64,000 nt of DNA from Bdellovibrionales bacterium (GTDB lineage Bacteria > Pseudomonadota > Alphaproteobacteria > UBA9219), in contig JBAZRW010000003.1 in assembly GCA_041662785.1 (NCBI GenBank), positions 142,531 to 206,530 on the forward strand, in the 5' to 3' direction. Made by a program: the position numbers and the translations under genes. Positions 14,801 through 64,000 of this stretch are shown one piece after another. The notes beneath the pieces are model-generated. The model ran no database searches, was not told where the DNA came from, and saw only the letters and a program-made list of their open reading frames with translations. Position 1 is the stretch's first letter. Every line of letters begins with the position of its first letter.

Positions 14801-14877
14801 CAAGGGATGAGGTTTGGCGAAATAGAGCGAGAGTTGTTATAACGAATACGATGCAGAGGAATAGGAGAATAATCGCG

Positions 14878-19421
<4,544 letters not shown>

Positions 19422-24391: not shown

Positions 24392-25252
24392 GTGAAAACT
24401 GTTGGTCTGTTCGTTGCCGCCATTCTAATCGCGTTATCGTCCGTTTGGCTTCACGATAAAAATGTGCACACTGTCAATGCAACGCAAGAGACAGCCTATG
24501 ATCGCGTGTTGCACACCAAGACTTTGCGGTGTGGATACGCTGATTGGCCTCCTCATGGACTTGTAAAAGATCCGAATACGGGAAAAATTTCCGGCGTCAT
24601 GTACGATATCCTTGAAGAGATTGGACGTCGTTTGAGTCTTAAGATTGACTGGAGCGAGAATACGGGGTGGAGCAATATTGTAAGCAGTCTTCAATCAAAG
24701 CGCATTGACGTTTTCTGCGCTGGTTTGTGGGTGAATGCCGAGCGTGGTCGTTCCTTGACATATTCTATGCCACTTTTTTTCAACGCATCGTTCCCCTTTG
24801 TCAGAATCGATGATCATCGGTTTGATAAGGACATCAAACGTGCCGATTCATCGGACATTCGTTTTTCTTCCATAGAGGGTGAGTTATCGGATGCCACAGC
24901 ACGCCTTCATTTCCCGAAAGCGCAGAAAATACCGGTGAGCCAGATGTTGCAGGCTTCCGAAGCCCTGAACAACATTGCAGTTAACAAAGCGGATATTATT
25001 ATTCTGGATTACAGCATGGGGAAAGGGTTCATAGATTCTAACCCTTCTACCTTGCGTAAATTAGGGGACAAACCTTTTCAGGTTTTCCAGAACTCCCTTG
25101 GCTTTGATATTCATGAAAACACGCTGCGCGATATGATTAACAATGCCCTTAATGAGATGCACAATCAGGGGGTTATTGCCAATATTGTTGCGAAACACAG
25201 TAACGATCCCAGTGAGTTTATTCCAGTCGCTCCGTCTTATTTGCAGCCGTAG
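24392..25252 (+). CDS. solute-binding protein family 3, orphan paralogue inserted between nusG and rplK
   Basis: 286 aa, GTG start with AAGGAG RBS, signal peptide. About 40% identical to the 6036-6893 product (shared CGY...DPNTGK.SG..YDI.E.IG......I.W.E..G......L.....DVFC.GLW). Confidence 0.7.
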   Translation: MKTVGLFVAAILIALSSVWLHDKNVHTVNATQETAYDRVLHTKTLRCGYADWPPHGLVKDPNTGKISGVMYDILEEIGRRLSLKIDWSENTGWSNIVSSLQSKRIDVFCAGLWVNAERGRSLTYSMPLFFNASFPFVRIDDHRFDKDIKRADSSDIRFSSIEGELSDATARLHFPKAQKIPVSQMLQASEALNNIAVNKADIIILDYSMGKGFIDSNPSTLRKLGDKPFQVFQNSLGFDIHENTLRDMINNALNEMHNQGVIANIVAKHSNDPSEFIPVAPSYLQP

Positions 25253-46248: not shown

Positions 46249-46318
46249 TTTAACGCTCTAGCCCGTGTATAAGCTCGTTGTACGTCGTTCTGGTTACCAA
46301 TATAGGATCTTACTCTCT

Positions 46319-47863
46319 ATGGACAAAATTCTTATTCTCGATTTCGGATCGCAAGTCACGCAGCTGATTGCGCGGCGCGTGCGCGAAGCGGGGGCGTACT
46401 GCGAGATTCACCCCTTTAACCGGACGGATGAGCAGATCAAGGCCTTTGCGCCCAAGGGGATTATCCTCTCCGGCTCGCCCGCCTCGACCACGGAAGACGG
46501 CAGCCCGCGCGCGCCTCAAGCCGTGTGGGATTTGGGCGTTCCCGTTCTGGCCATCTGCTATGGCCAGCAAACGCTTTGCATGCAGCTGGGCGGCCTTGTG
46601 GAAAGCGGCCATACCCGCGAGTTTGGCAAAGCGGAATTGCAAATCACCGAAAGCTGCGCGTTGTTTGAGGGGCTGTGGCCCACCGGCTCAACGCAGCAAG
46701 TCTGGATGAGCCACGGCGACCGCGTGACCAAGATCCCCGAAGGCTTCAAGGTTGTGGCAACCAGCACAGGCGCACCGTTCGCCTTCATTGCGAATGACGA
46801 GCGCAAGATTTACGCAACGCAATTCCATCCTGAAGTCGTTCATACGCTGGACGGTGCGAAGCTTTTGGGCACCTTTGTGCATAAAATATGTGGAATCGGT
46901 GCGGATTGGAGCATGAAGGCCTTTCGCGAGACGGAAATCGCCAAAATCCGCGCTCAAGTCGGCACTGGCAAGGTTATTTGCGGTCTTTCGGGCGGCGTGG
47001 ACAGCTCCGTCGCGGCGGTGTTGATTCACGAGGCGATTGGTGAGCAGCTGACCTGCATCTTTGTCGATACGGGCCTGATGCGCGAAGGCGAGGGCGAGGA
47101 AGTCGTCACGCTGTTCCGGAAACATTACAACATCCCGCTTGTCCATGTACAGGCACAGGATATGTTTTTAAAGGCTTTGGCGGGCGTCAGCGATCCGGAG
47201 ACCAAGCGCAAGACCATCGGCAAATTATTTATCGATGTGTTCGAGGCCGAGGCGCGCAAGATCGGCGGCGCAGGTTTCCTAGCACAGGGGACTTTGTATC
47301 CCGATGTGATCGAAAGCGTGTCCTTTACGGGCGGGCCGAGCGTCACGATCAAGTCGCATCACAATGTCGGCGGCCTGCCAGAGCGCATGAACATGAAGCT
47401 GGTTGAACCTTTGCGCGAACTCTTCAAGGATGAGGTGAGGAAACTTGGCAAAGAGCTTGGTTTACCTGAAACTTTTGTCTCTCGGCATCCTTTTCCGGGG
47501 CCGGGTCTCGCAATTCGTGTCTTAAGCGATATAACCGAGGAAAAACTGGCTATTTTGCGCAAAGCAGACGTGGTTTACCTCGATGAGATCCGAAAAGCGG
47601 GTCTTTATGACGAAATTTGGCAGGCTTTTGCCGTTTTGTTGCCCGTTCGCACCGTGGGCGTCATGGGTGATGGCCGTTCGTACGATTATGTGCTAGGTTT
47701 ACGCGCTGTCACGTCCGTTGACGGGATGACGGCAGAGTCCTACGCTTTCGATCATGCGTTTCTGGCCAAGGTGGCGACTCGTATCATCAATGAGGTGCGC
47801 GGCGTCAATCGCGTCGTCTATGACGTGACCAGCAAACCGCCCGGCACAATTGAATGGGAATAA
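46319..47863 (+). CDS. guaA: GMP synthase (glutamine-hydrolysing)
   Basis: Class-I GATase N-terminal domain ([20 protein letters not shown]) and ATP-PPase motif SGGVDSSV. Start trimmed to MDKIL. Confidence 0.95.
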
Positions 47864-47864
47864 G

Positions 47865-48470
47865 ATGAAGCATTCAGGATTCAGGATTCGGCATTCAGGG
47901 AAAATCCTGCTTGTCCTGATAGCGTGTTTTCTTCCCCAAGCCGCTGCTCATGCCGCGAACCACTGCTATGCGCCGGAAGAGTTAAAGGCGGAGCAGCTCT
48001 TGCGCCTGCATTCCGAGCTTATGGTCATCACGGTAACGTGCAAACAGGGATCAACAGGCCGTGATTTGGTTCGACCTTATGTAGGTTTCACAAAACGTCA
48101 CACCAAGGCTATCCAAGAGGCGGAAGCGACCCTTATCAACTATTATGCGAAAGCCTTTGGGGGCGATGGAATCCCTAAGCTGGATAAGCTTCGCACCAAG
48201 CTGGCCAATGAGTTTGGGCAAACAATCGCTGACGAATCAGCTCCTGCCTTTTGCGCCCGCGCCCGCGACAAGGTGTTGAAAATGTATGACGACCTCTCGC
48301 CAACGATTCTTGAGGACAACATACGATTATATCGTAGCTCTTTGAGCTATGTGCCTCAGTGCGCCCATAATGAGATTCAGACCGCCTCTGCGGATACTGA
48401 AATCGGAGACGAATCCCCCAGAAAGAAAGAGAAACGGGCCGAAAAGGCCACGAACAAAGAAAACCGTTAA
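47865..48470 (+). CDS. hypothetical secreted protein with Lys-rich C-terminus
   Basis: Start 1 nt after the guaA stop. Signal peptide (ILLVLIACFLPQAAAHA), four Cys; no recognisable domain. Confidence 0.4.
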   Translation: MKHSGFRIRHSGKILLVLIACFLPQAAAHAANHCYAPEELKAEQLLRLHSELMVITVTCKQGSTGRDLVRPYVGFTKRHTKAIQEAEATLINYYAKAFGGDGIPKLDKLRTKLANEFGQTIADESAPAFCARARDKVLKMYDDLSPTILEDNIRLYRSSLSYVPQCAHNEIQTASADTEIGDESPRKKEKRAEKATNKENR

Positions 48471-48540
48471 TTCTTCTTGACCGATGGCTCGTAATCGGCC
48501 AAAAACCACACCAAATCATGTCGCATGAAGTGTGTAGGTT

Positions 48541-49425
48541 ATGCCCAGTTTAAAAGACCTCAAAAACCGTATCGCCAGCGTGAAGTCCACGCGCAAAATC
48601 ACGTCCGCTATGAAGATGGTGGCGGCCAGCAAGCTGCGCCGTGCTCAGGACCAAGCGGAATCGTCGCGGCCTTACGCCAAGTTTATTTTGCGCATGACGC
48701 AGGACTTGGCGCGGACGATTGAAATCAGCCCCGAATCGTCCCCTCTTTTGGTTGGACGTGAAAAACAACAAACCGTGTTGCTTGTCGTTCTCACTTCGGA
48801 TCGCGGCTTGTGCGGCGCTTTTAACGGCTCCATCATTCGCGAGGCGCGCCGCCGCATTGTGGCGCTAGAGAAAGAGGGCAAAACCGTTCGTTTGATTTGC
48901 GTCGGGCGTAGGGCTTACAACCTTTTGCACCGTGAGCATGAGGCCAAGATTTTGCACAAAGTCGAAAGCGCCGCGAAGAAGCAGATTGATCTTGCGGATG
49001 CCCAAGAATTAAGTGATCGCCTGATCGCGTTGTTTGAAGAGGGCGCGTTTGATGTCGCCCACATCATTTTCAACCGCTTTAAATCTGCTATCTCACAAAT
49101 TGTGTCGGTAGAACAGCTGATCCCGTTCGGCGTACCTGAGGCCAATGACAACGATGCCGAGGGTCGTTTAGCCTGCGAGATTTTTGAGCCAGAGCAGAAT
49201 ACCTTGATGGCCGCGCTCTTGCGCCGCAATCTGACCGCGCAGCTCTTCGCCGATTTGATGGAAAGCTCGGCGGGCGAGCAGGGCGCACGTATGACAGCCA
49301 TGGATAACGCGACCCGCAACGCGGGCGATATGATCGACCGCTTGACTCTCAACTATAACCGCTCACGCCAAGCCTATATCACCAAGGAGCTGATCGAAAT
49401 CATCTCTGGCGCGGAGGCTGTGTAA
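48541..49425 (+). CDS. atpG: F0F1 ATP synthase subunit gamma
   Basis: MPSLKDLKNRIASVKSTRKITSAMKMVAASKLRRAQ N-terminus; conserved C-terminal helix. Confidence 0.9.
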   Translation: MPSLKDLKNRIASVKSTRKITSAMKMVAASKLRRAQDQAESSRPYAKFILRMTQDLARTIEISPESSPLLVGREKQQTVLLVVLTSDRGLCGAFNGSIIREARRRIVALEKEGKTVRLICVGRRAYNLLHREHEAKILHKVESAAKKQIDLADAQELSDRLIALFEEGAFDVAHIIFNRFKSAISQIVSVEQLIPFGVPEANDNDAEGRLACEIFEPEQNTLMAALLRRNLTAQLFADLMESSAGEQGARMTAMDNATRNAGDMIDRLTLNYNRSRQAYITKELIEIISGAEAV

Positions 49426-49427
49426 GA

Positions 49428-49931
49428 ATGTTTACGTCAGCAAAACTGTCCCGTGACGAATTGATCGGTATGTATGAAATTGCCGAAGGTACTATTTGTG
49501 TTCATCTACAGGAGTTGGAACGGGCAGAAAAACAAGGTCTGATGTCTTTCCCAACAAACGCTGTCACGATTGATCAGACAGATTGTGACAAGGTGTTTGA
49601 GGCTGAATGCAGAGTGCAACGTGTCCTTACGCAGCATGCTACGGTTCTTGGAAGCTCATGTTTTGTCTTTAAAGACTTGCTGCTTGATGGAGGGAAACCA
49701 AGAGAACAACAGGATTTTCCGTTTAATGCTTATCAAAACACAGAGTGGTTGGGCGACTTGTTGTCCATAACACCGAAGGTAGAAGATTTGGCGGTTAGAT
49801 GGGGATTCCATAAAGAGTTGGCCGCCATCAAAGGGGCGCGGATAGGACTGGAAGAAATGTTGGATGCCTGCCGACCTTTGCAAGTTGAGGAGCGGGGTAT
49901 CCCAAAACTAGAAACGCTTAGAGCCGCTTAA
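49428..49931 (+). CDS. hypothetical protein (167 aa) inserted between atpG and atpD
   Basis: ATG 2 nt after the atpG stop; ends 41 nt before atpD; lower GC than flanks; no recognisable domain. Confidence 0.5.
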   Translation: MFTSAKLSRDELIGMYEIAEGTICVHLQELERAEKQGLMSFPTNAVTIDQTDCDKVFEAECRVQRVLTQHATVLGSSCFVFKDLLLDGGKPREQQDFPFNAYQNTEWLGDLLSITPKVEDLAVRWGFHKELAAIKGARIGLEEMLDACRPLQVEERGIPKLETLRAA

Positions 49932-49951
49932 TTTTTTTGAGAACACACTGA

Positions 49952-51406
<1,455 letters not shown>

Positions 51407-51420
51407 AGGCGGGTATCATC

Positions 51421-51810
51421 ATGGCTAACCAACTGCAATTCGAATTGGCCTCACCGCAAAAGCTGGCGTGCAGCAAGCCTGTCGTGATGGTGACGGTTCC
51501 GGGCGGCGAGGGCGACTTTGGCGTCATGCTTGGACATGCGCCTATGGCCACGACTGTGGCGATGGGCGTTGTTGAAGCCTATGAGCATGACCAAACGACT
51601 GTGACAGAGCGCTGGTTCGTTGCAGGCGGCTTTTGTGAGGTTGTGGGCGACCGCTGCACCGTGATGGCCGATCAAGTCATCGCGATAAAAGATTTGAAGA
51701 AAGATATTCTTGAAGAGGAAATCGCCAGCTTAGCCAAAGAAGCCGCCAACGATTCTGACGCGGCACAGAAAATGGCCATCGCTCAAGCGAAGTTGCAGGT
51801 GATTGGCTAG
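51421..51810 (+). CDS. atpC: F0F1 ATP synthase subunit epsilon
   Basis: 129 aa directly after atpD; beta-sandwich N-terminus and helical C-terminus typical of AtpC. Confidence 0.85.
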   Translation: MANQLQFELASPQKLACSKPVVMVTVPGGEGDFGVMLGHAPMATTVAMGVVEAYEHDQTTVTERWFVAGGFCEVVGDRCTVMADQVIAIKDLKKDILEEEIASLAKEAANDSDAAQKMAIAQAKLQVIG

Positions 51811-52132
51811 AGCCGAACCGTTTAGTTTCCTCATTTCCCCCACCGTCATCGCGAGGGGGCGTCTTGTCCGGCGTAGCTGCGAAGCAGCGAAGACGGAAGC
51901 CCCCGTGGCGATCCATCTCCTGAATTTAGCGAAGAGCAATTCTAGTGGAAGGTTGAGGAGATGGATTGCCGCGCTCCCGTTGGTCGCTCGCAATGACGTG
52001 GGATATCATGAGAACCATCCAGAATAGCTATAGTCCTTTTTTCTGGTCAATTAGCTCTGTTTTTTGCCCCCGAAAAGTCGGCCATCGACATGCTTTGTTA
52101 TCAAATACTTAGCGCAAAAACATTCGCCACGG

Positions 52133-52440
52133 TCGAGCAGAGCGTGGAATAGTGCCACTCAGTATCCTTCCGCTCAAAGTTAACGTCGTAAGTCTTTGAT
52201 ATACAACGAAACTGACTCGAATTTGGGTCTATGCTAACCAATTGATTCTAAAGGGCTTTGTCAACTTCGCCCGATTTTGGATTGCCAAAAGCAAAAAATC
52301 AGGAGTCAGGGGGTGAGGTTCAGAGTTGGTCTCTCCTCTTTCGTCATCCCCGACCCCTCTGCGCCCTTCGGGCTTCGCGGGGCAGGCAAAGCGACGCAGC
52401 AGCGGAGCGGAGATACAGGATACATCTTCTGAAATGACCA
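52133..52440. repeat. ~300-bp repeat, family C copy 2
   Basis: Matches 27236-27530 in several blocks; ends in a CGTCATCCC...GCAGGCAAAGC hairpin module. Confidence 0.7.
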
Positions 52441-52763
52441 AGAGCGACTCAGGTAGAAATTTCAGGTGATGGATCCCGCCTTCCGGCGGGATGACGGGAG
52501 GGGGGCTGGCATCCCTTTTTTTTGAATCATTTTATCTGACGTAGGTTATAATGGGTTACGCAAGAGGTCTATTTCACAAGATCGCTAATCTCTCTAAAAT
52601 TTTCAATTTTCAAATTGACTTCCATTTTCATTCATTCTATGCCACGGCAGCGTTGCACACCGCGTTCAAGGTGGGCCTCGTCGTGAATCCTTCTTAACGT
52701 ATGCAATGAAGGTATTCGCTTCGCAAAACCAACTTGCTCGTCTACATAACGATGGATCCTTTC

Positions 52764-54773
52764 ATGTCTTTGACAATGGCTCAGCTGGCGGTACTTTTAA
52801 CCCTCATGTCTTCGGTTGCGGCGCTCGTTTTCGCGAGACAGCCCCGTTTTATGATCAGCTTGTCGTTCTTCTTGCTTGGCCTATCCGGCCTTGTAGCCGT
52901 TGCAGCGGGCGGCATGGCCTTGCTAGGCAATCAGGTTGAGCAAACCATTCTCCCCATCGGCCTTCCTTGGCTGCATGTTTGCCTTCATATCGATGCTCTT
53001 GCGGCTTTCTTTCTCTTCATTGTCGGGTTCGTCACTTTCGTCGCATCCTGCTATGGACCATCCTATATAAGTCGTCACGCCGATGATGGCGTGCATGCTG
53101 TTGGCACGCTAACCTTTTTCACGGGTCTTTTTGTCGGCGGTATGTACCTTGTGCTTTTGGCGGCGGACGCTTTTTCCTTTATGATTGCTTGGGAATTGAT
53201 GTCGGTCGCAAGCTATTTTCTTGTGGCCTATCAGCATGACAGAGCGGAAAATCGCAGCGCCGCCTTTATCTATCTTCTTATGGCCGTTGTTGGTGGGGCG
53301 TTTATCCTTCTTTCCTATGGCGTCCTAGCTGGCTTTAGCGATGGGTTTAGCTTTGCTTCTATGGCAAAAGCGAACCTTACCCCCGCATGGGCCACCATCG
53401 CCTTTTCGCTCGCCTTTGTCGGGTTTGGGCTTAAAGCCGGTATCGTTCCGTTGCATGTTTGGTTGCCTCAGGCGCATCCTGTCGCACCTTCCCACATCTC
53501 AGCCTTGATGTCTGGCGTCATGCTTAAAGTCGCCGTCTATGGTTTTATCCGTTTTGTCTTTGACCTATTAGGGGGCATCCACTGGCAGTGGGGTGTTCTG
53601 GTTCTTCTGGTCGGCGCGATTTCGGCTCTTATGGGCGTTTTGTATGCCCTTATGCAGCACGATCTTAAACGCCTTCTCGCCTACCACAGCGTCGAAAACA
53701 TCGGGATCATCTATATCGGCCTTGGCCTCTCCATGATTTTCACGGCAACCAACCATAAGGAAGTTGCCGCTATTGCCTTGGTCGCCGCTCTTTATCACTG
53801 TCTCAATCACGCCTTGTTCAAGAGCTTGCTCTTTTTGGGGGCGGGCGCGGTTTTAGAACAAAGCGGCCAACACAATATGGAGCATATGGGCGGTCTCATC
53901 AAAAAGATGCCCGTCACAGCGGCTTGCTTTTTGGTCGGATGCGTCAGTATTTGCGCCCTTCCTCCCTTTAACGGCTTTGTCTCAGAATGGCTGATTTACC
54001 AAGCCGCTTTGCAAGGCACGGTTTTAAAGAGTGGCATTTTGGGAACGGCTCTTCCCATCACGTCCGCCATGCTGGCGTTGACAGGGGCTTTGGCTATTGC
54101 CTGCTTTGTCAAGGTCTACGGGGTCGTTTTCTTAGGGCTTCCCCGCACCGAGAAAATCCATGAAGCGCATGAAGTTCCTCGCGGCATGCAATTTTCCCAA
54201 ATCATCCTGTCCATCAGCTGCTTGGTTTTTGGTATCTTCCCAACATGGACAGCAAACGTCCTTAACGTCATCCCGCAAAAACTTCTGGGCACAGGGTTTG
54301 CGGGAGCCAATGGCGACAGCTGGTTGTGGTTGACCCCCATCAGCAAAGAGACAGCCTCGTATGGTGCGCTTCCTGTCCTGATCGGTCTTTTGATCAGCTG
54401 GGTCGTCGTTTACTTCTTCCTTCACCCGCCCACACGCGACAACAGCATCCGTATTGCTCCGGCATGGGATTGCGGGTTTGGGCCTTTGAACGCACGCATG
54501 CAATACACAGCCACGTCCTTTGCCATGCCCATTCGTCGGATTTTCTCCTTCGCTTGGCATGTTTCGGAGAAAGTCGAGCCCGCGCATATGGGCAAGGGGC
54601 CTCACTATTTCCTTCATGTTAGTGACTGGGTTTGGATGTACGCGTATGCGCCTATTGGCAAAATTATCCATAAGGTTGCCGAAAGAACGGCGCGCATTCA
54701 AGGGGGCGATCTTCGTATTTACCTCTGCTATTCCTTCTTTACCTTACTCTTTTTGCTCTGGGTGATCGTATGA
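52764..54773 (+). CDS. hyfB: hydrogenase-4 component B-like membrane subunit (HyfB/HycC, NuoL-type antiporter-like)
   Basis: Aligns along its length with E. coli HyfB (LPQAHPVAPSHISALMSGVMLKVAVYG...). Start uncertain (TTG 52734, ATG 52752/52764/52776). Confidence 0.85.
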   Translation: MSLTMAQLAVLLTLMSSVAALVFARQPRFMISLSFFLLGLSGLVAVAAGGMALLGNQVEQTILPIGLPWLHVCLHIDALAAFFLFIVGFVTFVASCYGPSYISRHADDGVHAVGTLTFFTGLFVGGMYLVLLAADAFSFMIAWELMSVASYFLVAYQHDRAENRSAAFIYLLMAVVGGAFILLSYGVLAGFSDGFSFASMAKANLTPAWATIAFSLAFVGFGLKAGIVPLHVWLPQAHPVAPSHISALMSGVMLKVAVYGFIRFVFDLLGGIHWQWGVLVLLVGAISALMGVLYALMQHDLKRLLAYHSVENIGIIYIGLGLSMIFTATNHKEVAAIALVAALYHCLNHALFKSLLFLGAGAVLEQSGQHNMEHMGGLIKKMPVTAACFLVGCVSICALPPFNGFVSEWLIYQAALQGTVLKSGILGTALPITSAMLALTGALAIACFVKVYGVVFLGLPRTEKIHEAHEVPRGMQFSQIILSISCLVFGIFPTWTANVLNVIPQKLLGTGFAGANGDSWLWLTPISKETASYGALPVLIGLLISWVVVYFFLHPPTRDNSIRIAPAWDCGFGPLNARMQYTATSFAMPIRRIFSFAWHVSEKVEPAHMGKGPHYFLHVSDWVWMYAYAPIGKIIHKVAERTARIQGGDLRIYLCYSFFTLLFLLWVIV

Positions 54774-55714
54774 CGGGCTGGATCTTTGCGCTTGTTCAAA
54801 CGCTTTGCGTTGTCCTTTTTGCTCCCTTTTTGGCCGGTTGGGTCAAATGGGTAAAATGTAAGTTGCAGAACAGGCAGGGGCCTGCTCCATGGCAACCCTA
54901 TCGTGATCTGCTGCGCCTTTCCAGAAAGCAGGTTGTGCTGGCGGATGTGGCTTCGCCCATTTTCCGTGCTGCGCCTTATATTGTTTTCGGCGCCACTGTC
55001 GTCGCCGCCTCTGTTTTGCCCATCGTCTCGACGCAGCTGCCCACAGCGGCTTTGGCGGATGTTATCGTTTTGGTTGGGATTTTCGCTCTTACGCGCTTCT
55101 TCCTCGCCTTGGCGGGCATGGATGTCGGCACGTCCTTTGGCGGTATGGGTTCTTCGCGTGAGGTGACTCTATCCTCTCTTGCCGAGCCTGCGCTTTTGAT
55201 GACCTTCTTCACGTTGGCGATGAACGTATCCAGCACCAACCTGTCCTCTGCCGTGTCCCATCTTGCTCAGGCTAACTTTACCTTAGCGCCGTCGCTCATC
55301 TTTTCTTTTATGGCGCTGCTTCTTGTCGCCGTGGCAGAAACAGGGCGCATTCCTATTGATAATCCTGCCACGCATCTTGAGCTTACCATGATTCATGAAG
55401 CCATGATTCTGGAGTACAGTGGCCGCCACCTCCTTTTGATGGAGTGGGCTTCCATGCTCAAGCTCACGCTCTATTCGATTTTGATCGTCAACCTGATCGT
55501 TCCATGGGGCGTGGCAATGACGATGGAGCCGAAGGATGTTGCGTTTGCCGCTATCACCGTGTTGGGCAAGTTAATGGCGCTTGGCATTTTGCTGGCGGTT
55601 TCAGAAACGTCTCAAGCCAAAATGCGTTTGTTCCGCGCCCCCCAATATCTTGGCATGGCCTTTATTCTGTCCCTTCTTGGGATGATGAGCCATATTATCC
55701 TAGAGGTTCGATAA
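54770..55714 (+). CDS. hyfC: formate hydrogenlyase subunit 4-like (HyfC/HycD, NuoH-type)
   Basis: 314 aa; start overlaps the hyfB stop; resembles HycD throughout (RQGPAPWQPYRDLLRL...). Confidence 0.85.
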   Translation: MTGWIFALVQTLCVVLFAPFLAGWVKWVKCKLQNRQGPAPWQPYRDLLRLSRKQVVLADVASPIFRAAPYIVFGATVVAASVLPIVSTQLPTAALADVIVLVGIFALTRFFLALAGMDVGTSFGGMGSSREVTLSSLAEPALLMTFFTLAMNVSSTNLSSAVSHLAQANFTLAPSLIFSFMALLLVAVAETGRIPIDNPATHLELTMIHEAMILEYSGRHLLLMEWASMLKLTLYSILIVNLIVPWGVAMTMEPKDVAFAAITVLGKLMALGILLAVSETSQAKMRLFRAPQYLGMAFILSLLGMMSHIILEVR

Positions 55715-55715
55715 C

Positions 55716-56393
55716 ATGCTTATAGCTTCTCTCTCGATGCCTGAACAGGTAACGCTGACGCTGTCAGCGCTGATCTTGCTTTCCTCTTTTCTTCTGCTGG
55801 CTCAGGTGCGTGTCGACAGCTTGATCAACACCTTTGCGCTGCAAGGCCTGCTGTTGTTTTCCGCAACGCTTGCCATTGCGTTTATATCAGGGAAGTATGA
55901 CCTCCTGATCTCGGCGGCTCTGACCCTTGGCCTCAAGGTTATTTTTATCCCCTCGCTGTTACGCAGACTTATTATTCGGTTGGATATCCATCGCGAGATT
56001 GAGGTTCTCGTTAAGCCTTCCTTGGTCATGCTTTTTGGCGGGGGTCTTGTTCTTTTCAGCTATTATGTCTCGCTGCCCATTACCGAGTTGTCTCTGTTGT
56101 CCACGCGAAACACGATTGCCATTTCCTTGGCCGTTGTTCTGATCGGCATGCTGATGATCATCTCTAGGCGCAAGGCCATCTCGCAAGTTATCGGCTTTAT
56201 GTCGATGGAAAACGGCCTTTTCTTTGCCGCTGTCGTTTCCACGTTCGGTATGCCCATGGTCGTCGAGCTTGGGATTGCCTTTGACGTGCTGGTAGCCGTT
56301 ATTCTGTTTGGCGTCTTCTTCTTCCACATTCGTGCCGAAATCGGCAGCCTAGATACGGACCGCCTAAATCGTTTGAATGAGGTCGATAAATGA
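55716..56393 (+). CDS. hyfE: hydrogenase-4 component E-like small membrane subunit (HyfE)
   Basis: 225-aa polytopic membrane protein in the HyfE position and size. Confidence 0.7.
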   Translation: MLIASLSMPEQVTLTLSALILLSSFLLLAQVRVDSLINTFALQGLLLFSATLAIAFISGKYDLLISAALTLGLKVIFIPSLLRRLIIRLDIHREIEVLVKPSLVMLFGGGLVLFSYYVSLPITELSLLSTRNTIAISLAVVLIGMLMIISRRKAISQVIGFMSMENGLFFAAVVSTFGMPMVVELGIAFDVLVAVILFGVFFFHIRAEIGSLDTDRLNRLNEVDK

Positions 56394-57856
56394 TTGCTCT
56401 TTACTTTACCCTTTTGTTTCCTTTTTCAGGCGCACTTCTCTTGGGATTAATAGGCCATTGGAAGTCGGCCAAATATGTGAACATGACCATCTGCTGGGGG
56501 ACGCTTATCGCCGCCTTCTTGTTGGCCCTAGATGTTTTTGAAAAAGGCCCCATCTTGTCCTCTGGCAAGCTCTTTTATATCGATGCCTTCAACGTCTATC
56601 TTATCTTGCTCAATGCCTTTGTCGGCCTGACAACCTCTATTTTTTCTGGCCCCTACATGAGCCATGAAAGGGATATTGGACGCGTTGGTGATAAGCGGAT
56701 GAGGCTCTATCACTCGATGTTTCAAGGCTTCCTTTTCACGATGCTAGCCGCGCTATCGACCAATAACCTTGGCATCCTTTGGGTGTCTATCGAGGCCGCC
56801 ACCTTGACGACTGTCCTGTTGGTTAGCCTTTACCGCACCCATGAATCGATTGAGGCGGGCTGGAAGTACTTTATCATTTGCGGCGTCGGCATTTCGCAAG
56901 CCTTGTTCGGCACGATCCTCGTCTATTTCGCTTCGGCAAAGGTTATTCCGGGGCATGAAGACGGCCTGCTCTGGACAGTATTGCAAACCTACGCCGCTCA
57001 TATGGACAAAGGCGTGATGGCCTTGGCTTTTGTTTTCCTCCTTGTCGGTTACGGAACAAAGGTTGGTTTGGTTCCTTTGCACAATTGGCTTCCTGACGCG
57101 CATTCCGAAGGCCCGACTCCTATGTCGGCCATTCTCTCCGGCCTTCTTCTGAACGTTGCTCTATACGCGCTTGTTCGCTTTAAAATGCTGGCGGATCCGT
57201 CCCTCGGCAACCATCTGGCGGGTAATTTGATGATGGGCTTTGGCATGCTGTCGTTCTCTGTCGCAGGCATTCTGCTTCATCGCCAATACGACATCAAACG
57301 GATGTTCAGCTATTCCTCGATTGAGCATATGGGACTAATGACCTTTGCCTTTGGTATTGGCGGACCCTTGGCCACGTTTGGGGCGCTTTTGCATATGATC
57401 GTTCACTCCCTGACGAAATCGGCTATTTTCGTCACGGTAGGGCACGCCTCTCAAATTGCGGGCACGCAGGTGATCAGCAAAATACGCGGCCTTGTTCGCT
57501 CTAACCCTGCTGTGGGGTGGAGTCTTTTGCTGGGAACCTGCGCTATTGCGGGCTTCCCACCCTTCGGCGTCTTTACCAGCGAGTTTCTTCTCTTTACGGC
57601 CACGATCAAAAGTTATCCATGGCTTGTCTTGCCGCTTCTTGTTGGCTTGGCGGTCGCTTTTGCCGGACTGTTTCGGAACATTCAGCCCATGGTCTTTGGC
57701 GAGCCGCCAGAGAACCAGCGCAAAGTGCCCGTTAATATGTGGCCTGTATTCATTCATCTGGCCTTGGTGCTGTGGCTCGGTCTTGCTATTCCGACCGTCT
57801 TGGCTCAATGGCTTAATCAAGCAACCATCATGATCGTTGGACAGGGCGTGCTATGA
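56390..57856 (+). CDS. hyfF: hydrogenase-4 component F-like (HyfF, NuoN/M-type antiporter-like)
   Basis: 488 aa; Mrp/Nuo antiporter motifs (LVPLHNWLPDAHSEGPTPMSAILSG). Overlaps both neighbours by 4 nt. Confidence 0.8.
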   Translation: MIALYFTLLFPFSGALLLGLIGHWKSAKYVNMTICWGTLIAAFLLALDVFEKGPILSSGKLFYIDAFNVYLILLNAFVGLTTSIFSGPYMSHERDIGRVGDKRMRLYHSMFQGFLFTMLAALSTNNLGILWVSIEAATLTTVLLVSLYRTHESIEAGWKYFIICGVGISQALFGTILVYFASAKVIPGHEDGLLWTVLQTYAAHMDKGVMALAFVFLLVGYGTKVGLVPLHNWLPDAHSEGPTPMSAILSGLLLNVALYALVRFKMLADPSLGNHLAGNLMMGFGMLSFSVAGILLHRQYDIKRMFSYSSIEHMGLMTFAFGIGGPLATFGALLHMIVHSLTKSAIFVTVGHASQIAGTQVISKIRGLVRSNPAVGWSLLLGTCAIAGFPPFGVFTSEFLLFTATIKSYPWLVLPLLVGLAVAFAGLFRNIQPMVFGEPPENQRKVPVNMWPVFIHLALVLWLGLAIPTVLAQWLNQATIMIVGQGVL

Positions 57857-59460
57857 CAAAATCAGTACATAAAGGGCAACTTGAATCCCCCGTTGTGGCT
57901 TCCCTTCCGACATTGCTGAACGAAGCAGGCATTCCGACGACAGAAATGCCCGCCGTCAAGGGCGCTGCCCGCGCGCTGTCCATCGACTCCCGTTTCTGGG
58001 CCAAAGCCGCTTCCGTTATGGCTGAAAACTATGTGCGTTGGTCAGCCGTATGGGGTGAGCATGACTCTCCCAACATTTTGATCAAGGCCGTTTTCGCCGC
58101 TCGTGATGGGCATGTCTTGCTTTGCACAAGCGTTCAAGAAACAGGCGGCGTGCTTCCGTCTCAAACACCATTCTTTCCGGCTGCCAATCGGCCAGAACGC
58201 ACACTTCAGGATATGTTCGGTATTCGTTTTTCCGATCATCCCGATCAGCGGCGCTGGCTGCGCCATTTGGCGTGGGGCGAAGATCAGTTTCCTCTCCGCA
58301 AGGAGTTTCCGCTGGCGGGAACACCGCAACAGGAAACGCCGCCTGATTGCCAATACGCGTTTATTCCGGCTGAAGGGGAGGGGCTCTATGAAATTCCTGT
58401 TGGCCCCGTCCATGCTGGCATTATCGAGCCTGGGCATTTCCGCTTTTCGGCAATGGGCGAGGATATCCTCAACTTGGAACAGCATCTAGGCTATGTCCAC
58501 AAAGGCATAGAAAAATGCGCCGAAGGCCGTGATGTGCAGGGGCTTCTTCGCCTTGCTGCGCGCGTCTCTGGAGACAGCACCGTCACCCATTCATGGGCCG
58601 CCTGTCAGGCTTGCGAAAATGCTGTTGGCCTTAAAGTTCCCGACCGCGCCCTTGTCATCCGCGCCATCCTTTCTGAAAGAGAGCGCATTGCCAATCATCT
58701 GGGTGACATTGGCGCTTGCTGTAATGATGTTGGCTTTGCCTTTGCTCTCGTGCAATTTGGCCGCCTGCGTGAGCTTTGGCAGCGTGATAACGCAACCGTT
58801 TTCGGTCATCGCTTTATGATGGATGTTGTAACGGCGGGCGGCGTAACCCGTGACATCTCGCCAGAGCACGTTGCCTTGCTGCAAAAATCCATCGTTCAGT
58901 TACGCAAAGAACTGAAAGAGCTTATCCCCATGCTGTGCGAATATCCTTCGTTGCAAGACCGCTTCCGCACGACGGGTATCCTATCGCCCCATGTTGCAAG
59001 AACCATTGGCGCTCTGGGCTATGTGGCTCGTGCCAGCGATGAGTGTTGGGACATGCGTCGCGATGCCCCCTATGCTCCGTATCAAAATGTTACAGTCGCC
59101 GTGCCTAACTGTAAAGAGGGCGATACGGCAGGACGCGTGCGCGTGCGTGGCGAGGAGCTTTTCATTTCTCTCGATCTGTTGGATAGCTTCCTATCAAACA
59201 TGCCGTCAGGCAAAATCAGCGCGGACTTCCACGCCCCCCAAACAGACTGCTTCGGCGTAGGCTTGGTTGAAGGGTGGAGGGGCGAAACCATCGCCTACGT
59301 TCACTTGGATAGCAACGGAACCGTGGCTCGTTATTTCCCGCGCGATGCAAGCTGGCTCAACTGGCCTGCTCTTGAGGCCCTGATTGGAGGTGTGATCGTT
59401 CCCGATTTCCCTCTTTGTAACAAATCCGTCAACGGCTCGTACTCAGGCCATGATGTTTAA
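57853..59460 (+). CDS. hyfG: [NiFe]-hydrogenase group-4 large subunit-like (HyfG/HycE, fused NuoC-NuoD type)
   Basis: N-terminal NuoC-like plus NuoD-like parts (GPVHAGIIEPGHFRFS...). N-terminal CxxC present (AACQAC); the C-terminal region has only one Cys (DFPLCNKS). Confidence 0.85.
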   Translation: MTKSVHKGQLESPVVASLPTLLNEAGIPTTEMPAVKGAARALSIDSRFWAKAASVMAENYVRWSAVWGEHDSPNILIKAVFAARDGHVLLCTSVQETGGVLPSQTPFFPAANRPERTLQDMFGIRFSDHPDQRRWLRHLAWGEDQFPLRKEFPLAGTPQQETPPDCQYAFIPAEGEGLYEIPVGPVHAGIIEPGHFRFSAMGEDILNLEQHLGYVHKGIEKCAEGRDVQGLLRLAARVSGDSTVTHSWAACQACENAVGLKVPDRALVIRAILSERERIANHLGDIGACCNDVGFAFALVQFGRLRELWQRDNATVFGHRFMMDVVTAGGVTRDISPEHVALLQKSIVQLRKELKELIPMLCEYPSLQDRFRTTGILSPHVARTIGALGYVARASDECWDMRRDAPYAPYQNVTVAVPNCKEGDTAGRVRVRGEELFISLDLLDSFLSNMPSGKISADFHAPQTDCFGVGLVEGWRGETIAYVHLDSNGTVARYFPRDASWLNWPALEALIGGVIVPDFPLCNKSVNGSYSGHDV

Positions 59461-59515
59461 GACAGGGTCGTTTCACCTTTTCGCAGTTTAACTCTTAGCT
59501 CATCGGATTGCTTCC

Positions 59516-60025
59516 ATGTTTCACGTTCTTTTCAAAAGCTTCAAAACGGGCTGTTTAACAGAAAAACTGCCCCCCCGTGATGAGTCTCTCGATCAAGTCG
59601 GTGAGGCTTGCCGCGAAGAGATTGCGCGTCTCTTCGGCAAAAGCATGGCCGTTCGCATGGTTGATGCGGGATCCTGCAATGGATGCGAGCTTGAAATGCA
59701 CGCGGTCAACAACGGTTTTTACGATATTGAGCGTTTTGGTATTCACTTCGTCGCCTCCCCCCGTCATGCCGATCTTTTGTTGGTAACGGGGCCTGTGTCG
59801 CGTCACATGCAAGCTGCGCTGAAACGCACCTATGACGCAACCCCTTCGCCCAAGGTCGTAATCGCGATGGGGGATTGCGCCGCATGCGGCGGCGAGTTTG
59901 GCGTGTCCTATGCTAGTTGTGGGGCTGTCTCGAACGTCATCCCCGTGGATGCCGTTATTCGCGGCTGTCCTCCGACCCCTCTACAACTCCTTCAGGGAAT
60001 TTTGGAAGTTCTTAAGGCTCGTTGA
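59516..60025 (+). CDS. hyfI: hydrogenase-4 small subunit-like (HyfI/HycG, NuoB-type, [4Fe-4S])
   Basis: Cluster ligands GSCNGCE, GDCAACGG, GCPPTP; strong match to HycG (RFGIHFVASPRHADLLLVTGPVSR). Confidence 0.8.
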   Translation: MFHVLFKSFKTGCLTEKLPPRDESLDQVGEACREEIARLFGKSMAVRMVDAGSCNGCELEMHAVNNGFYDIERFGIHFVASPRHADLLLVTGPVSRHMQAALKRTYDATPSPKVVIAMGDCAACGGEFGVSYASCGAVSNVIPVDAVIRGCPPTPLQLLQGILEVLKAR

Positions 60026-60297
60026 TAGCTTTTTGAGTCGGCTTTTCAGAATCCCACCCCGGTGGACACCTCTTGTTGCATAAAGGCAAAAAAAGGGGGG
60101 GGCAAAAAATTCGTTTACACTTATTTTACTTGTAATCGAATAAGGTTTGAATACTAATCATTAACCATGATTTCTTCCTCCGTTTTCGTCGTGGATGCCT
60201 GTAATCTTGTGGTTTTCCTGAATGAATCCAGCCCCCTTGATTCTGTTTAATGTGTCAAATCCTTGTCTCACTTCTTAAGCTTTTGCAGGAGTTCCCA

Positions 60298-60840
60298 ATG
60301 AAAAGAGTTTTCCTTACACGCGTTCTTGTTTGTGCTGGTTTCTTTGCCCTTGTTTGTGGCATGGCGGCTCCAGCACAAGCTGTTGATCAAGCGGATTTGA
60401 TGGTTGCGCTTAAAACCACACCGCTTCTAACGAATAAACTATCGGGCAGTGCCGTTATGGCGGTTGTGTTTGATCCCGCTGATGCAGCATCAAAAGCAGA
60501 GGCTGATTCGCTTAAAGCACTTCTCGATGCAGGGATCGACGCACCAGGTGGTGTTAAAATCACGGGGATGATGGTTCCTGTCGCCGAGGTTGGCAGTAAG
60601 CTTTCTTCCGCCAAGCTGGCCTTCATTACAAAGGGGGCTTGTACGGCTCCAGTGAGCACAGCGGCAAACGCGGCGGGTGTGTTGTCGATGTCAACCGATC
60701 TTGACTGCGTAAAAGGCAATAAGTGCATTCTAGGTATCGTCACGAAGCCAAGCGTTGAAATCTACTACAGCAAAACGGCAGCCGATGCAGCCAAAGTTGG
60801 CTTTGCGCAGGCGTTCACCATGCTCGTCAAACAAATCTAA
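60298..60840 (+). CDS. hypothetical periplasmic protein upstream of the TonB-dependent receptor gene
   Basis: Start trimmed to the ATG after AGGAG. Signal peptide (VLVCAGFFALVCGMAAPAQA); Ala-rich mature part with 3 Cys. Confidence 0.4.
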   Translation: MKRVFLTRVLVCAGFFALVCGMAAPAQAVDQADLMVALKTTPLLTNKLSGSAVMAVVFDPADAASKAEADSLKALLDAGIDAPGGVKITGMMVPVAEVGSKLSSAKLAFITKGACTAPVSTAANAAGVLSMSTDLDCVKGNKCILGIVTKPSVEIYYSKTAADAAKVGFAQAFTMLVKQI

Positions 60841-60887
60841 TATCTTTATCTGACAACGATCCAGAAAATACCCAAAGGAGTTACACT

Positions 60888-62915
60888 ATGAAAAAATCAT
60901 CTCTTTTCCTCTGCTCCATGTGCGCTTTTGCTGTAGCCATGTCATGCGGGACCTCAAGTCGTGCGAACGCTATGGACTATGGTTCATTAGAGGCGTTGTT
61001 CGGTGAACCGGTTACCACAAACGCCACGGGCACACCCCAACGCGCTAGTGAAGTTGCAGCGAACATGACCATCATTACGGCCGATCAAATCCGTCAATCG
61101 GGAAACCGCAGCATTCCTGAAATTATTGGTCAATATGTTACTGGTGTCGATGTTTTAAGAACCTCTTTAGGTGATTATGATGTTGGCGTTCGTGGACATC
61201 AGATGGTTTTCCAATCACGCCTTCTCGTTCTCGTTGATGGCCGTCAGGTTTTTATTGATGACTATTCCCGCACGGTCTGGAACAATCTCCCCGTCAACAT
61301 TGACGATGTGCGTCAAATTGAGGTTGTGAAGGGGCCCGCTTCGGCTCTCTTTGGCTCAAACGCCGCCAGTGGTGTTGTCAACATCATCACCTATAGCCCC
61401 GTCAGCGATAAAAACAACGTTGCGGCTGTAAGCTTGGGGACGCAGAATTCGCTAACAGGCGATGCAACGGTTACCAAGAATGGGACGTGGGGTGGCACTA
61501 AATTCTCGGCGGGTGGGTTAAGCGCCGATGAGTTTAAGACCGGCCATGCGGCAAACGACTCTTCCATCATTTATTCGCCAGAACGTCGTTTTGCCTCCAA
61601 CAGCTCTGTGTTTAATTTAACGCCTGATCTGACAGCCAACATGGAAGTGACGGCATCGGAGAGTAAGCAGAATGTGGCTTTGTCTGCTTTCAACTCCGTA
61701 GGTGCGGAGGATACGGCGACGTATTCGGCGCGTGGTGGGTTCAATTGGCAGACAGATTACGGCATGATCACGTCCGACACCTACTTCAATCACGCCTATG
61801 ACACCATCTACTCATCGATATCGACCACCATTCCTTTTGGTCTGACAACCGACTTAGTTGTTAGCAGCTTGAACGACCAGTTCAAGGTTGGCTCTGATCA
61901 CACGTTCCGTACTGGCCTTGAATATCGTCATAAAGACTTTAGGCTGACAGCCTACCAGATCGCACCCGGATCGCCCGCGTATCATGAGGACAACTATGCG
62001 GCAAGCGGAACATGGTTATGGCAGATCGCTAACAACTTATCGCTGACCAATGCGGTTCGGTTTGACCATCTGGACATGAACATGACGGGACAAATCCCGA
62101 CTGTGACTATGTTCTCGGACTCTGACTATAGCCATGCCATCAATACATGGAGTGCGAATTCCGCTCTGGCTTATAAGATGACGGATCTTGATACCTTCCG
62201 TTTGTCCTATGGGCGTGGCGTGCAAATGCCCAGCTTGCTGCAAAGCGGCTCTAACTTCCATACTTTGAACGGGGCCACCCCTGTTTCTCTGGAAGGGAGC
62301 GGGGATCTTAAACCAACGATTACGCAAAGCTATGAGGTTGCCTATGATCGTAAGATTGCCCCCATCTACTCGACAGCAAAACTGGCGACCTTCTATGTTA
62401 TGTCGCAGGATGTAGCCTCTTTCGTCAACAACGGCATGCAAAATGTCAACGGTTCTGTGGTTGATTTAATCAAGGCCGAAAACATTGGCGAGAGTCAGTC
62501 TTACGGTGGCGAAATTGCTTTAACGGGTAATCACAACGGGTTCCGTTGGGATGCCAGCTATAGCTTAGCTAAGGTGATCGATTCAGCCAGTGTTCTTGCT
62601 AATCAGGATTACCAAGGCTCTTCGCCAGAGCATCACTTCCGCTTTGGTCTCGGTTATACCTATAAGGATTGGGAGTTTGACGCGAATAGTCAGGTTATGT
62701 CCTCAACAAAAATCTTGCGTGACGCAACGGGTGCTGGTGCTATCCCCATTCCTGTTTCGGAATACATGACGGTTGGGGCGCGGGTTGGCTACAACCTGAT
62801 GGACAACCTGAATGTCGCGGTTTCTGGAACCAACCTTAATCGTCACACAATTGGAACAAGCCCGTATCCAGCTGTTGAGCGTCAGGCTTTTGTCACGCTT
62901 ACGGGTAAGTTCTAA
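60888..62915 (+). CDS. TonB-dependent outer-membrane receptor
   Basis: Signal peptide, plug domain (IEVVKGPASALFGSNAASGVVNIIT), 22-strand barrel length, C-terminal aromatic residue (…TLTGKF). Confidence 0.85.
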   Translation: MKKSSLFLCSMCAFAVAMSCGTSSRANAMDYGSLEALFGEPVTTNATGTPQRASEVAANMTIITADQIRQSGNRSIPEIIGQYVTGVDVLRTSLGDYDVGVRGHQMVFQSRLLVLVDGRQVFIDDYSRTVWNNLPVNIDDVRQIEVVKGPASALFGSNAASGVVNIITYSPVSDKNNVAAVSLGTQNSLTGDATVTKNGTWGGTKFSAGGLSADEFKTGHAANDSSIIYSPERRFASNSSVFNLTPDLTANMEVTASESKQNVALSAFNSVGAEDTATYSARGGFNWQTDYGMITSDTYFNHAYDTIYSSISTTIPFGLTTDLVVSSLNDQFKVGSDHTFRTGLEYRHKDFRLTAYQIAPGSPAYHEDNYAASGTWLWQIANNLSLTNAVRFDHLDMNMTGQIPTVTMFSDSDYSHAINTWSANSALAYKMTDLDTFRLSYGRGVQMPSLLQSGSNFHTLNGATPVSLEGSGDLKPTITQSYEVAYDRKIAPIYSTAKLATFYVMSQDVASFVNNGMQNVNGSVVDLIKAENIGESQSYGGEIALTGNHNGFRWDASYSLAKVIDSASVLANQDYQGSSPEHHFRFGLGYTYKDWEFDANSQVMSSTKILRDATGAGAIPIPVSEYMTVGARVGYNLMDNLNVAVSGTNLNRHTIGTSPYPAVERQAFVTLTGKF

Positions 62916-62948
62916 ACTAACGGACGTACAATAAATAAGGGGGTAGGG

Positions 62949-64000
62949 ATGGCATCGAACAGGTTCTCAACGGTCAATTGGCCTTTTGCGGTTAAGTTTG
63001 CCATCCCCGCTCTTCTTGTTTTTGCACTACTTATTTTTGTCGAGTTTCTTGGCCTTAACACCATTGGGCTCCTCAAAAATAGTATGGAAGACATTACGGA
63101 GCATAAATTTTCTTCAAATGTTCTTTTGTCGGATGTTGTTCAACAGTTCAGAGATGCCAATGGTCAGCTGCAGCAGATGCAACTGAACCAAGCCGCTGAA
63201 ATTAAGCAGGATGTTACAAAATCAGCAAAAGATATCGGTGATAAACTTGATGGCGTTGTCGCATCGCTTGAGCTTTACAAAAATCAGTATGCAGCCAAAG
63301 AAAATATCGCAAAAATAGATGACGCCATCGTCAACGTCAAAACGTACAAAGATGCCGTTGCTTTTGTCGCCAGCATGCTGGACGTTGATTTTAAAACGAC
63401 GGTCAATTTTCTCGTCCCTATCTCAAAAGCCTACAATAAAACGCTTGAGGACATTAACGTCATCGCCGCCACGTGCCTTAAAGATTCACAGGTTGTTTCT
63501 AAAGAGGCTATTCTGACCGTGTCAGAAGAAAAACAAACAATGTTTCTAACAAGCGTTATAGCTGTTATTTTTGTTCTCCTCGTTACATTATTGATTGTTC
63601 TTTCAACCGTTCGCTCAATTCAGCGTTTATCCAAGGCAACGCGACAGCTTGCTGATGGGGAAATGAACATTGATATTAATGGGCTTAAACGTAAGGACGA
63701 ACTTGGACAATTGGTCGATGCCTTATCCATATTCCGCGACAATATGGAGCGGGTTAATGCGCTGAAAGGCGAACAAGAACGCGCCGAAGAGAAAGCGCGC
63801 GAAGCTAAAAAACAAGCGCTCATGTCCTTGGCCCAAGATTTGGAACATGATGTAGGCGGCCTTGTTAGCGAAGTCGCCGCGACGACAAAGACGATGATGG
63901 ATGAAGCTATTTTGTTGGCCAAGTCAGCGGAGGCCATGTCTGCACAGGCCAATGAAGCATCCTTGATTTCAGGTCAAACCATGGAGGAGGCTCGTCACAC
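62949..64000 (+). CDS. methyl-accepting chemotaxis protein (3' end outside window)
   Basis: Open to the window edge; not in the ORF track. TM1 - periplasmic domain - TM2 - HAMP (LSKATRQLADGEMNID...LGQLVDALSIFRDNM) - start of MCP signalling domain. GGGGG RBS. Confidence 0.7.
   Translation, partial: MASNRFSTVNWPFAVKFAIPALLVFALLIFVEFLGLNTIGLLKNSMEDITEHKFSSNVLLSDVVQQFRDANGQLQQMQLNQAAEIKQDVTKSAKDIGDKLDGVVASLELYKNQYAAKENIAKIDDAIVNVKTYKDAVAFVASMLDVDFKTTVNFLVPISKAYNKTLEDINVIAATCLKDSQVVSKEAILTVSEEKQTMFLTSVIAVIFVLLVTLLIVLSTVRSIQRLSKATRQLADGEMNIDINGLKRKDELGQLVDALSIFRDNMERVNALKGEQERAEEKAREAKKQALMSLAQDLEHDVGGLVSEVAATTKTMMDEAILLAKSAEAMSAQANEASLISGQTMEEARH

Follow-up and report, generated by a model that had tools for sequence, protein, structure and literature searches.

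The 64,000-nucleotide stretch of contig JBAZRW010000003.1 considered here (hereafter, the window) encodes on its forward strand a protein of 535 residues, EhrL, that resembles the large subunits of group 4 [NiFe] hydrogenases. A preliminary description of this DNA singled out two features of the protein, the string 'AACQACENAVG' and a C-terminus with a single cysteine, and read them together as a three-of-four set of Ni-Fe ligands. The open reading frame (ORF) and the quoted strings are real: 'AACQACENAVG' occupies residues 249-259, and the C-terminus, which reads '...GGVIVPDFPLCNKSVNGSYSGHDV' or, in its other quoted form, '...PDFPLCNKSVNGSYSGHDV', contains one cysteine, C522. The ligand count is wrong. 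By two independent kinds of alignment, none of the four metal-binding cysteines remains, and the gene is the fifth of six in a co-directional, tightly packed cluster, ehrA-B-C-D-L-S, at 52734-60025. We consider it probable that this cluster specifies a six-subunit Ehr complex (EhrA-B-C-D-L-S) that is likely a redox-linked ion translocator and not a hydrogenase. The genes are as follows.

52734..54773 (+): ehrA, membrane subunit of antiporter type, HyfB/NuoL-like (817 bits to NF005086 'hydrogenase 4 subunit B', which exceeds its cut-off; PF00361)
54770..55714 (+): ehrB, NuoH/HycD-like membrane subunit, the connection between peripheral module and membrane arm (PF00146, 1e-33)
55716..56393 (+): ehrC, HyfE-like membrane subunit whose C-terminal part resembles NuoK (NF008556, PF00420)
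56390..57856 (+): ehrD, membrane subunit of antiporter type, HyfF/NuoM-N-like (739 bits to NF005045 'hydrogenase 4 subunit F', which exceeds its cut-off)
57853..59460 (+): ehrL, large subunit in which NuoC-like and NuoD/HycE-like parts are fused, devoid of Ni-Fe ligands (PF00329, PF00374, PF00346)
59516..60025 (+): ehrS, NuoB/HycG/MbhJ-like small subunit with one [4Fe-4S] site (PF01058, 4.8e-31)

The large subunit combines a NuoC-like domain (PF00329, residues 85-157) with the 49-kDa/NuoD domain (PF00346) and a partial match to the Ni-dependent hydrogenase model PF00374, which covers residues 217-283 and just the N-terminal 67 profile positions. EhrL falls below the cut-off of every NCBIfam equivalog for NuoD, NuoCD or hydrogenase large subunit. 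Its closest sequence in the PDB is E. coli HycE of formate hydrogenlyase (FHL; 7z0s_E, E 1.2e-68), followed by MbhL and NuoD/NuoCD proteins. The same chain is the top fold match (template modelling score, TM, 0.84) of an AlphaFold2 model of EhrL with a predicted local distance difference test score (pLDDT) of 84.9, in which residues 156-214 and the final 5 residues are of low confidence. No Ehr-type structure is found among the PDB sequence or fold matches to EhrL (fold library up to April 2026). The public record of the protein, MFA6280007.1, is named 'NADH-quinone oxidoreductase subunit C' at NCBI and 'Ni,Fe-hydrogenase III large subunit' at JGI, and both names are misleading. The uncultured host MAG is labelled Bdellovibrionales, and the closest named homologue of EhrL (75% identity) is labelled Alphaproteobacteria.

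The loss of the ligands rests on the register of the two cysteine-bearing motifs, L1 near the N-terminal side and L2 at the C-terminus, which in EhrL correspond to the following segments.

58561..58590 (+): L1-equivalent segment R237-V-S239-G-D241-S242-T-V-T-H246, in place of RxCGxCxxxH (alignment to HycE, MbhL and Cys-containing relatives)
58597..58614 (+): 'AACQAC', residues 249-254, a non-ligand CxxC opposite HycE 'AYTTSV'
59416..59418 (+): codon of Cys522, the lone C-terminal cysteine, opposite Ile of HycE 'PLIIGS'
59431..59454 (+): L2-equivalent segment N527-G-S529-Y-S-G532-H-D534, in place of (D/E)xCxxCxD and followed by V535 and the stop (alignment to HycE DPCYSC)

HMMER sets 'RVSGDSTVTHS' (residues 237-247 of EhrL) opposite 'RVCGICGFAHS' of HycE and likewise opposite 'RMCGICSFSHN' of MbhL, whereas the CxxC that the preliminary description had taken for L1 falls 9-12 residues downstream of that motif, in a non-ligand region. 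At the other end of the protein, HycE 'SLDPCYSC' lies opposite EhrL 'SVNGSYSG' (residues 525-532), and Cys522, which precedes the first L2 ligand position by 7 residues, lies where both HycE ('PLIIGS') and the 'FPLINKS' consensus have Ile. The register was checked between profiles by hhalign, with 29 Ehr family members on one side and 21 relatives that have all four cysteines on the other. The two profiles align with a probability of 100% and an E value of 6e-150, gap-free through both motifs and in the same register as HMMER's: 'RVSGDStVaH' opposite 'RiCGxCxxSH', and 'IVPDFPlcNKSxNxSYSGhD' opposite 'iVpDfPLINKSFeLCYaCxD'. A MAFFT alignment had placed the last cysteine of HycE at the very end of the alignment; this is an end-gap artefact of a truncated HycE fragment, and the HMMER and hhalign registers are preferred. 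Because these two agree on both motifs, the ligand positions of EhrL are, by alignment, Ser239, Ser242, Ser529 and Gly532, with 0/4 Ni-Fe cysteines left. EhrL matches neither the L1 motif with its two cysteine ligands (it has R-V-S239-G-D-S242-T-V-T-H) nor the L2 motif (D/E)(P/L)CxxCxx(H/R) (it has N-G-S529-Y-S-G532-H-D-V). The profile alignment with HycE-type relatives that the preliminary description had called for therefore finds its CxxC non-homologous to L1, an outcome that the description itself had named as refuting its reading, and its single C-terminal cysteine off the ligand position. Its broader suggestion of an Ehr-like, non-hydrogenase site is supported, on other grounds than the three-of-four premise from which it started: all four ligands are replaced, and replaced in a pattern conserved across the family. 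Because all four metal-binding cysteines are substituted, EhrL is predicted to be unable to hold a Ni-Fe centre or to make or consume H2.

The residues that stand in for the ligands are nearly invariant. Among 120 close homologues (58-100% identity, from Desulfobulbus, Desulfuromusa, Geopsychrobacter, Geothermobacter and many MAGs), S239, G240 and D241 are each present in 120/120 and S242 in 115/120, as are N527, G528, Y530, G532 and D534 in 120/120 each and S529 in 119/120. A wider sample comprises 87 EhrL-homologous copies mapped in loci of other genomes, 85 of which span all four ligand positions. Positions 239, 241 and 242 carry Ser in 82/87, Asp in 86/87 and Ser or Thr in 86/87 of these copies, respectively, and the four ligand positions read SSSG in 61/85 and STSG in 17/85 (78/85 together), with cysteine in 0/85. 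When the family is reduced to 150 representatives at 50% clustering, the patterns SSSG, STSG, SESG and SNSG together account for 62, and 22 retain CCCC; the latter are true hydrogenases with 'RxCGxC ... FPLINKSFELCYxCxDR'. The SSSG pattern is common to EhrL and to its own cluster representative, P0053. The beta1-beta2 loop of EhrL, 'HAGIIEPGHFRF', is of the hydrogenase type and invariant.

The small subunit keeps its cluster ligands. As the preliminary description correctly stated, EhrS has all four [4Fe-4S] ligands, encoded as follows.

59675-59677 (+): codon of EhrS C54
59684-59686 (+): codon of EhrS C57
59876-59878 (+): codon of EhrS C121
59966-59968 (+): codon of EhrS C151

These four cysteines align with those of the closest PDB sequences, MbhJ (6.7e-34) and then HycG (9.9e-33), and are kept in 78-80/78-80 homologues, whereas the other four cysteines of EhrS are variable.

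The membrane subunits, in turn, carry the residues expected of an ion-translocating arm. By comparison with HycC and MbhH, EhrA has the glutamate of transmembrane helix (TM) 5 (WELMS) and the lysines of TM7 (GFGLKAG), TM8 (MLKVA) and TM12 (ALFKS); EhrD, aligned with EhrA, has the TM5 glutamate (SIEAA) and the lysines of TM7 (GTKVG) and TM12 (SLTKS), with Asn at the TM8 position where EhrA has Lys. These key antiporter residues are at least 95% conserved across loci. The longest ORF of ehrA, 679 residues, begins at a TTG at 52734; the ATG at 52764, which gives the 669 residues called in other assemblies, is likely the true start. EhrB is closest in the PDB to HycD (7z0s_D, 2.6e-43), and most positions of its loop 'AETGRIPIDNPATHLELTMIHEAMILEYSGRHL' are at least 95% conserved across loci. 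EhrC matches NF008556 ('hydrogenase 4 membrane subunit', 9.6e-26) below the cut-off and PF00420 weakly over residues 135-221; its glutamates in 'ENGL' and 'VVE' are conserved.

The cluster also lacks certain components. A regular-expression search for CxxCxxCxxxC, the signature of a NuoI/HycF/EchF-type 2x[4Fe-4S] subunit, found no instance in any of the six frames of the whole window, and no NuoI-type ferredoxin subunit occurs within the conserved six-gene cluster of relatives. Pfam searches of the large ORFs of the window detected no hyp, nickel-transport or fdh genes; hyp genes and nickel supply are likewise missing from the relatives' flanks, and may lie elsewhere in the genome. The other large ORFs of the window have housekeeping functions only (rpoBC, nusG, rplKA, trpAB, purEK, guaA, atpGDC, murJ and others, by Pfam).

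This combination of traits is that of a family already on record. According to PMC6349859, Ehr ('Ech-' or 'energy-converting hydrogenase-related') complexes are relatives of group 4 [NiFe] hydrogenases without the Ni/Fe-coordinating residues and are suspected of coupling a cytoplasmic redox reaction to charge translocation; PMC10284858 places them next to group 4f, with function unknown. EhrL is such a homologue on all three counts (HycE at 1.2e-68, TM 0.84, 0/4 Cys), and the Pfam and NCBIfam matches of the six genes, on which the descriptions of EhrB and EhrD rest, give the composition EhrA/B/C/D/L/S. The names EhrA-1, EhrC, EhrL and EhrS are those used for Geobacter sulfurreducens, in which EhrA, B, C, D, L and S (GSU0739-45) have been found as proteins with peak abundance in formate-grown cells, and in which the role of the cluster 'has never been investigated' (PMC7894505). 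The window cluster has the same six subunit types and names, a likeness drawn by description. EhrL of the window is an ordinary member of this described and functionally uncharacterised family; there is nothing new in kind about it.

The closest true hydrogenases found, at 33-42% identity to EhrL, probably belong to group 4f (Ehf). Like EhrL, they have a fused NuoC domain, the 'HAGIIEPGHFRF' loop and, towards the C-terminus, 'IVPDFPL(I/C)NKSF', but keep RxCGxC and ELCYxCxDR where EhrL has S-G-D-S and N-G-S-Y-S-G-H-D-V. The loss of cysteines in Ehr is accompanied by co-substitutions: a near-invariant Asp241, Asn527 for Glu, and a final Leu or Val for Arg. Among the closest known systems are also FHL, with its large subunit HycE, and HyfG. 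HycE is the top sequence and fold match to EhrL; in the PDB, EhrA is closest to HycC, EhrB to HycD, and EhrS to MbhJ and then HycG. HycE, however, has all four cysteines and a C-terminal extension, which is removed during maturation, and FHL has HycB, HycF and FdhF for electron input, none of which accompanies the window cluster. In complex I, NuoCD/Nqo4 has the same fold, is also devoid of a Ni-Fe site and has a NuoH-type subunit and a NuoB-type [4Fe-4S] cluster as partners, whereas the window cluster has a hydrogenase-like beta1-beta2 loop and neither NuoI nor the NuoEFG module. A further parallel is the membrane-bound sulfane reductase of P. furiosus (Mbx/MBS), a group 4 hydrogenase descendant that lost H2 chemistry and kept the Fe-S chain and ion-translocating arm. 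Its chains are weaker PDB matches to EhrL (6u8y_L, 1.7e-18). MBS is built from many more subunits, one of them a NuoI-type ferredoxin subunit; its membrane arm is composed differently, and its substrate is known.

Taken together with these systems, the Ehr cluster invites a mechanism in several steps, inferred by analogy with its relatives. EhrS would carry one [4Fe-4S] cluster beside the former active-site pocket of EhrL, a pocket that would be lined by the strictly conserved polar residues S239, D241, S242, N527, S529 and D534 and by the hydrogenase-type loop. Reduction or oxidation of the EhrS cluster by a donor-acceptor pair would alter charge or protonation in the pocket, and this change would be relayed through NuoH-like EhrB and NuoK-like EhrC to EhrD and EhrA, as in complex I, Mbh and FHL. 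EhrD and EhrA would then move H+ (or Na+) across the membrane, in a reaction that may also run in reverse. That Ehr is redox-active, that it translocates ions and in which direction it runs are presumed from this analogy. For its substrates, a low-potential donor such as ferredoxin or a carrier derived from formate dehydrogenase, and a membrane quinone-type acceptor, can be guessed.

Two alternatives would retain or restore a cysteine-based metal site. The preliminary description raised a sequencing or frameshift problem at the 3' end, and one might extend this to a decaying pseudogene, either of which would mask a normal DPCxxC. The missing motif itself is all that speaks for such an explanation, which is hardly credible. 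The other two frames across 59341-59560, examined by three-frame translation, are full of stops and contain no CxxC, the L2-equivalent codons of ehrL include no homopolymer run, and the N-terminal ligands are gone as well. The ehrL stop codon comes directly after the family-wide C-terminus 'SYSGHD[LV]'; 'NKSVNGSYSGHD[LV]*' is common to 120 homologues with the stop at the same place, and a contig that was assembled separately, from run SRR18595301, codes for an identical EhrL. It is also very improbable that C251, C254 and C522 form a non-canonical three-cysteine (or other cysteine-based) site, that is, an unusual or crippled [NiFe]-type centre. All three cysteines are present, and in the close clade C251 and C522 are well kept (113/120 and 117/120, respectively). 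Against this, all three lie off the ligand positions by both HMMER and hhalign, position 254 holds Cys in 55/120 close homologues and in 4/87 other-genome copies, and in the latter C251 and C522 are Cys in 46/87 and 51/87, the alternative at 522 being Ile. Cysteine at position 251 is a background residue that is frequent in the true, Cys-containing hydrogenases of the same clade too ('AFCQAVE'), and no hyp genes occur in the window. Because C254 is kept in just 4/87 and C251 in 46/87 of the other-genome copies, the CxxC of EhrL is a clade-specific coincidence.

The main rival accepts the loss of the metal site and disputes the electron transfer. It holds that the complex is in effect a cation/proton antiporter of the Mrp type, or a device for ion homeostasis; the EhrL/EhrS cap and its Fe-S cluster would be structural or would sense redox state or pH, and no net electron transfer would take place. 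We regard this as unlikely, and it has more in its favour than the two alternatives above: the cluster has no electron-input subunit and no conserved redox partner, a regulator with HTH_17 and PTS_EIIA_2 domains adjoins it in two genomes, and the six-gene 'group 4f' complex that a 2025-26 preprint reports from Methylocystis, whose catalytic-subunit motif is '...AARVS', is up 16- to 20-fold at pH 5 (log2 fold change +4.2 to +4.5; 10.1101/2025.08.29.672306). That motif matches the Cys-to-Ser L1 of the window EhrL, and the Methylocystis complex, although classed as a hydrogenase, is probably an Ehr that lacks the cysteines. Its acid induction is, however, shared by two formate dehydrogenases and by terminal oxidases (10.1101/2025.08.29.672306), and so fits a redox role too. 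Moreover, the Fe-S cysteines and pocket residues are invariant over a very wide divergence, beyond the usual need of a scaffold. The two independent omics studies of relatives, in Geobacter and Methylocystis, hint at a connection with formate oxidation and acid stress.

Several points weigh against a redox-linked ion translocator as well. For every Ehr complex, redox activity, ion pumping and substrates are matters of inference. All characterised relatives, to our knowledge, feed the NuoB-type cluster through a NuoI-type 2x[4Fe-4S] subunit, and this subunit is absent here, with no evident route for electrons to EhrS. All-against-all clustering of locus flanks found no conserved partner gene. 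An ungapped HMMER alignment to 2fug_4 sets His38 of T. thermophilus Nqo4 opposite EhrL Ile191 and Tyr87 opposite Gly240; because these two residues, which we take to be the quinone head-group ligands of complex I, are absent from EhrL, the guess of a quinone acceptor is weakened. Finally, the residue comparison covered Desulfuromonadales and Geobacteraceae relatives at 58-62% identity to the window EhrL (58-61% for Geopsychrobacter, Geothermobacter and Desulfuromusa; 62% for a Geobacteraceae MAG locus), and the Ehr of G. sulfurreducens itself was likened to it by description. A redox-linked ion translocator nonetheless remains the reading that we favour. A bolder version of it, to which we give little weight, is that S239, D241, S/T242, N527, S529, G532 and D534, with E192, H187, H195 and K524, make up a new catalytic or ion-binding site, and that Ehr is a minimal machine of the complex I type, which has a single Fe-S cluster, lacks a ferredoxin-type input module and couples a redox or protonation reaction to ion translocation.

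The Ehr cluster is a stable unit in genomes of very different kinds. At least 588 stretches of the species-genome collection encode an Ehr relative, and among the matches listed are Methylobacter, Thiogranum, Nitrospirota, Gallionella, Thiobacillus, Acidithiobacillus, Mariprofundus, Paraburkholderia, Azospirillum and Bradyrhizobium. Genes in the loci were mapped by tblastn, as greedy ORF calling fragmented them in genomes of high GC content. Of 84 loci, 64 have the complete order A-B-C-D-L-S, and the remainder either are cut by contig ends or are tandem duplicates. The genes are of almost the same size in an alphaproteobacterial-type MAG, Desulfobulbus, Geopsychrobacter and Burkholderia.

The flanking genes, by contrast, vary from genome to genome. 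By all-against-all clustering, the recurrent neighbours are an XRE-type helix-turn-helix (HTH) gene upstream of ehrA (14 loci), a SulP/STAS transporter gene upstream (10 loci) and a DUF2490 gene downstream (5 loci), none of which occurs in this window. Loci with recurrent neighbours include L066 (1900-3717), L077 (3508-3753), L008 (4460-5170), L004 (12260-12940) and L086 (4036-4740). Together with the HTH_17 and PTS_EIIA_2 regulator, these neighbours may hint at regulation or ion homeostasis. Two tandem Ehr-like clusters are present in Geopsychrobacter electrodiphilus (L004), where they adjoin the nuo operon, in a Nitrospirota MAG (L028) and in a Methylibium MAG (L031), and such paralogous duplication suggests functional specialisation.

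In the window, the region downstream of ehrS (60250-64000) encodes a 196-residue secreted protein without a family match and a TonB-dependent receptor, with a methyl-accepting chemotaxis protein past the window end; in the nearest relative (L002), a gene for a methyl-accepting chemotaxis protein follows ehrS directly. Upstream, the 924-nucleotide gap between atpC and ehrA (51810-52734) contains an inverted repeat (51904-51924 / 51953-51973) and a terminator-like hairpin (52495-52524), followed by a promoter-like site.

52573..52600 (+): candidate sigma-70-like promoter upstream of ehrA, TTCACA-16-TAAAAT (consensus match only, 10/12)

Searches with Rfam and ARAGORN found nothing near the ehr operon.

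Elsewhere in the window, the ATP synthase genes have an unusual layout (46265-51810). Here guaA is followed by an ORF for a secreted-looking protein of 206 residues (47850-48470, no family match) and atpG; an ORF of 167 residues (49428-49931, no Pfam or NCBIfam match) separates atpG from atpD, atpC follows, and neither atpH nor atpA lies upstream. Between 10107 and 27078 the gene order departs from the usual rplKAJL-rpoBC: a gene for a solute-binding protein (24392-25252) stands between nusG and rplK, and rpoB and rpoC are separated by 844 nucleotides that hold a reverse-strand ORF of 188 residues without a Pfam match (14605-15171). At 23021-23090 (-), between tRNA-Gly and tRNA-Trp, an Rfam tRNA match exactly at the gathering threshold (29.1 bits) has no ARAGORN call and may be a degenerate tRNA.

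For the organism, the practical consequence is that the public names of EhrL would mislead metabolic reconstruction, for example by predicting H2 metabolism for this MAG. The same concern has a broad reach, given how widespread Ehr is: its at least 588 stretches extend to Burkholderia, Bradyrhizobium, Azospirillum, and methanotroph, sulfur-oxidiser and iron-oxidiser lineages. For the family as a whole, mutagenesis and structure work can start from the invariant signature S-G-D-S ... N-x-S-Y-S-G-x-D and from the lack of a ferredoxin-type subunit.

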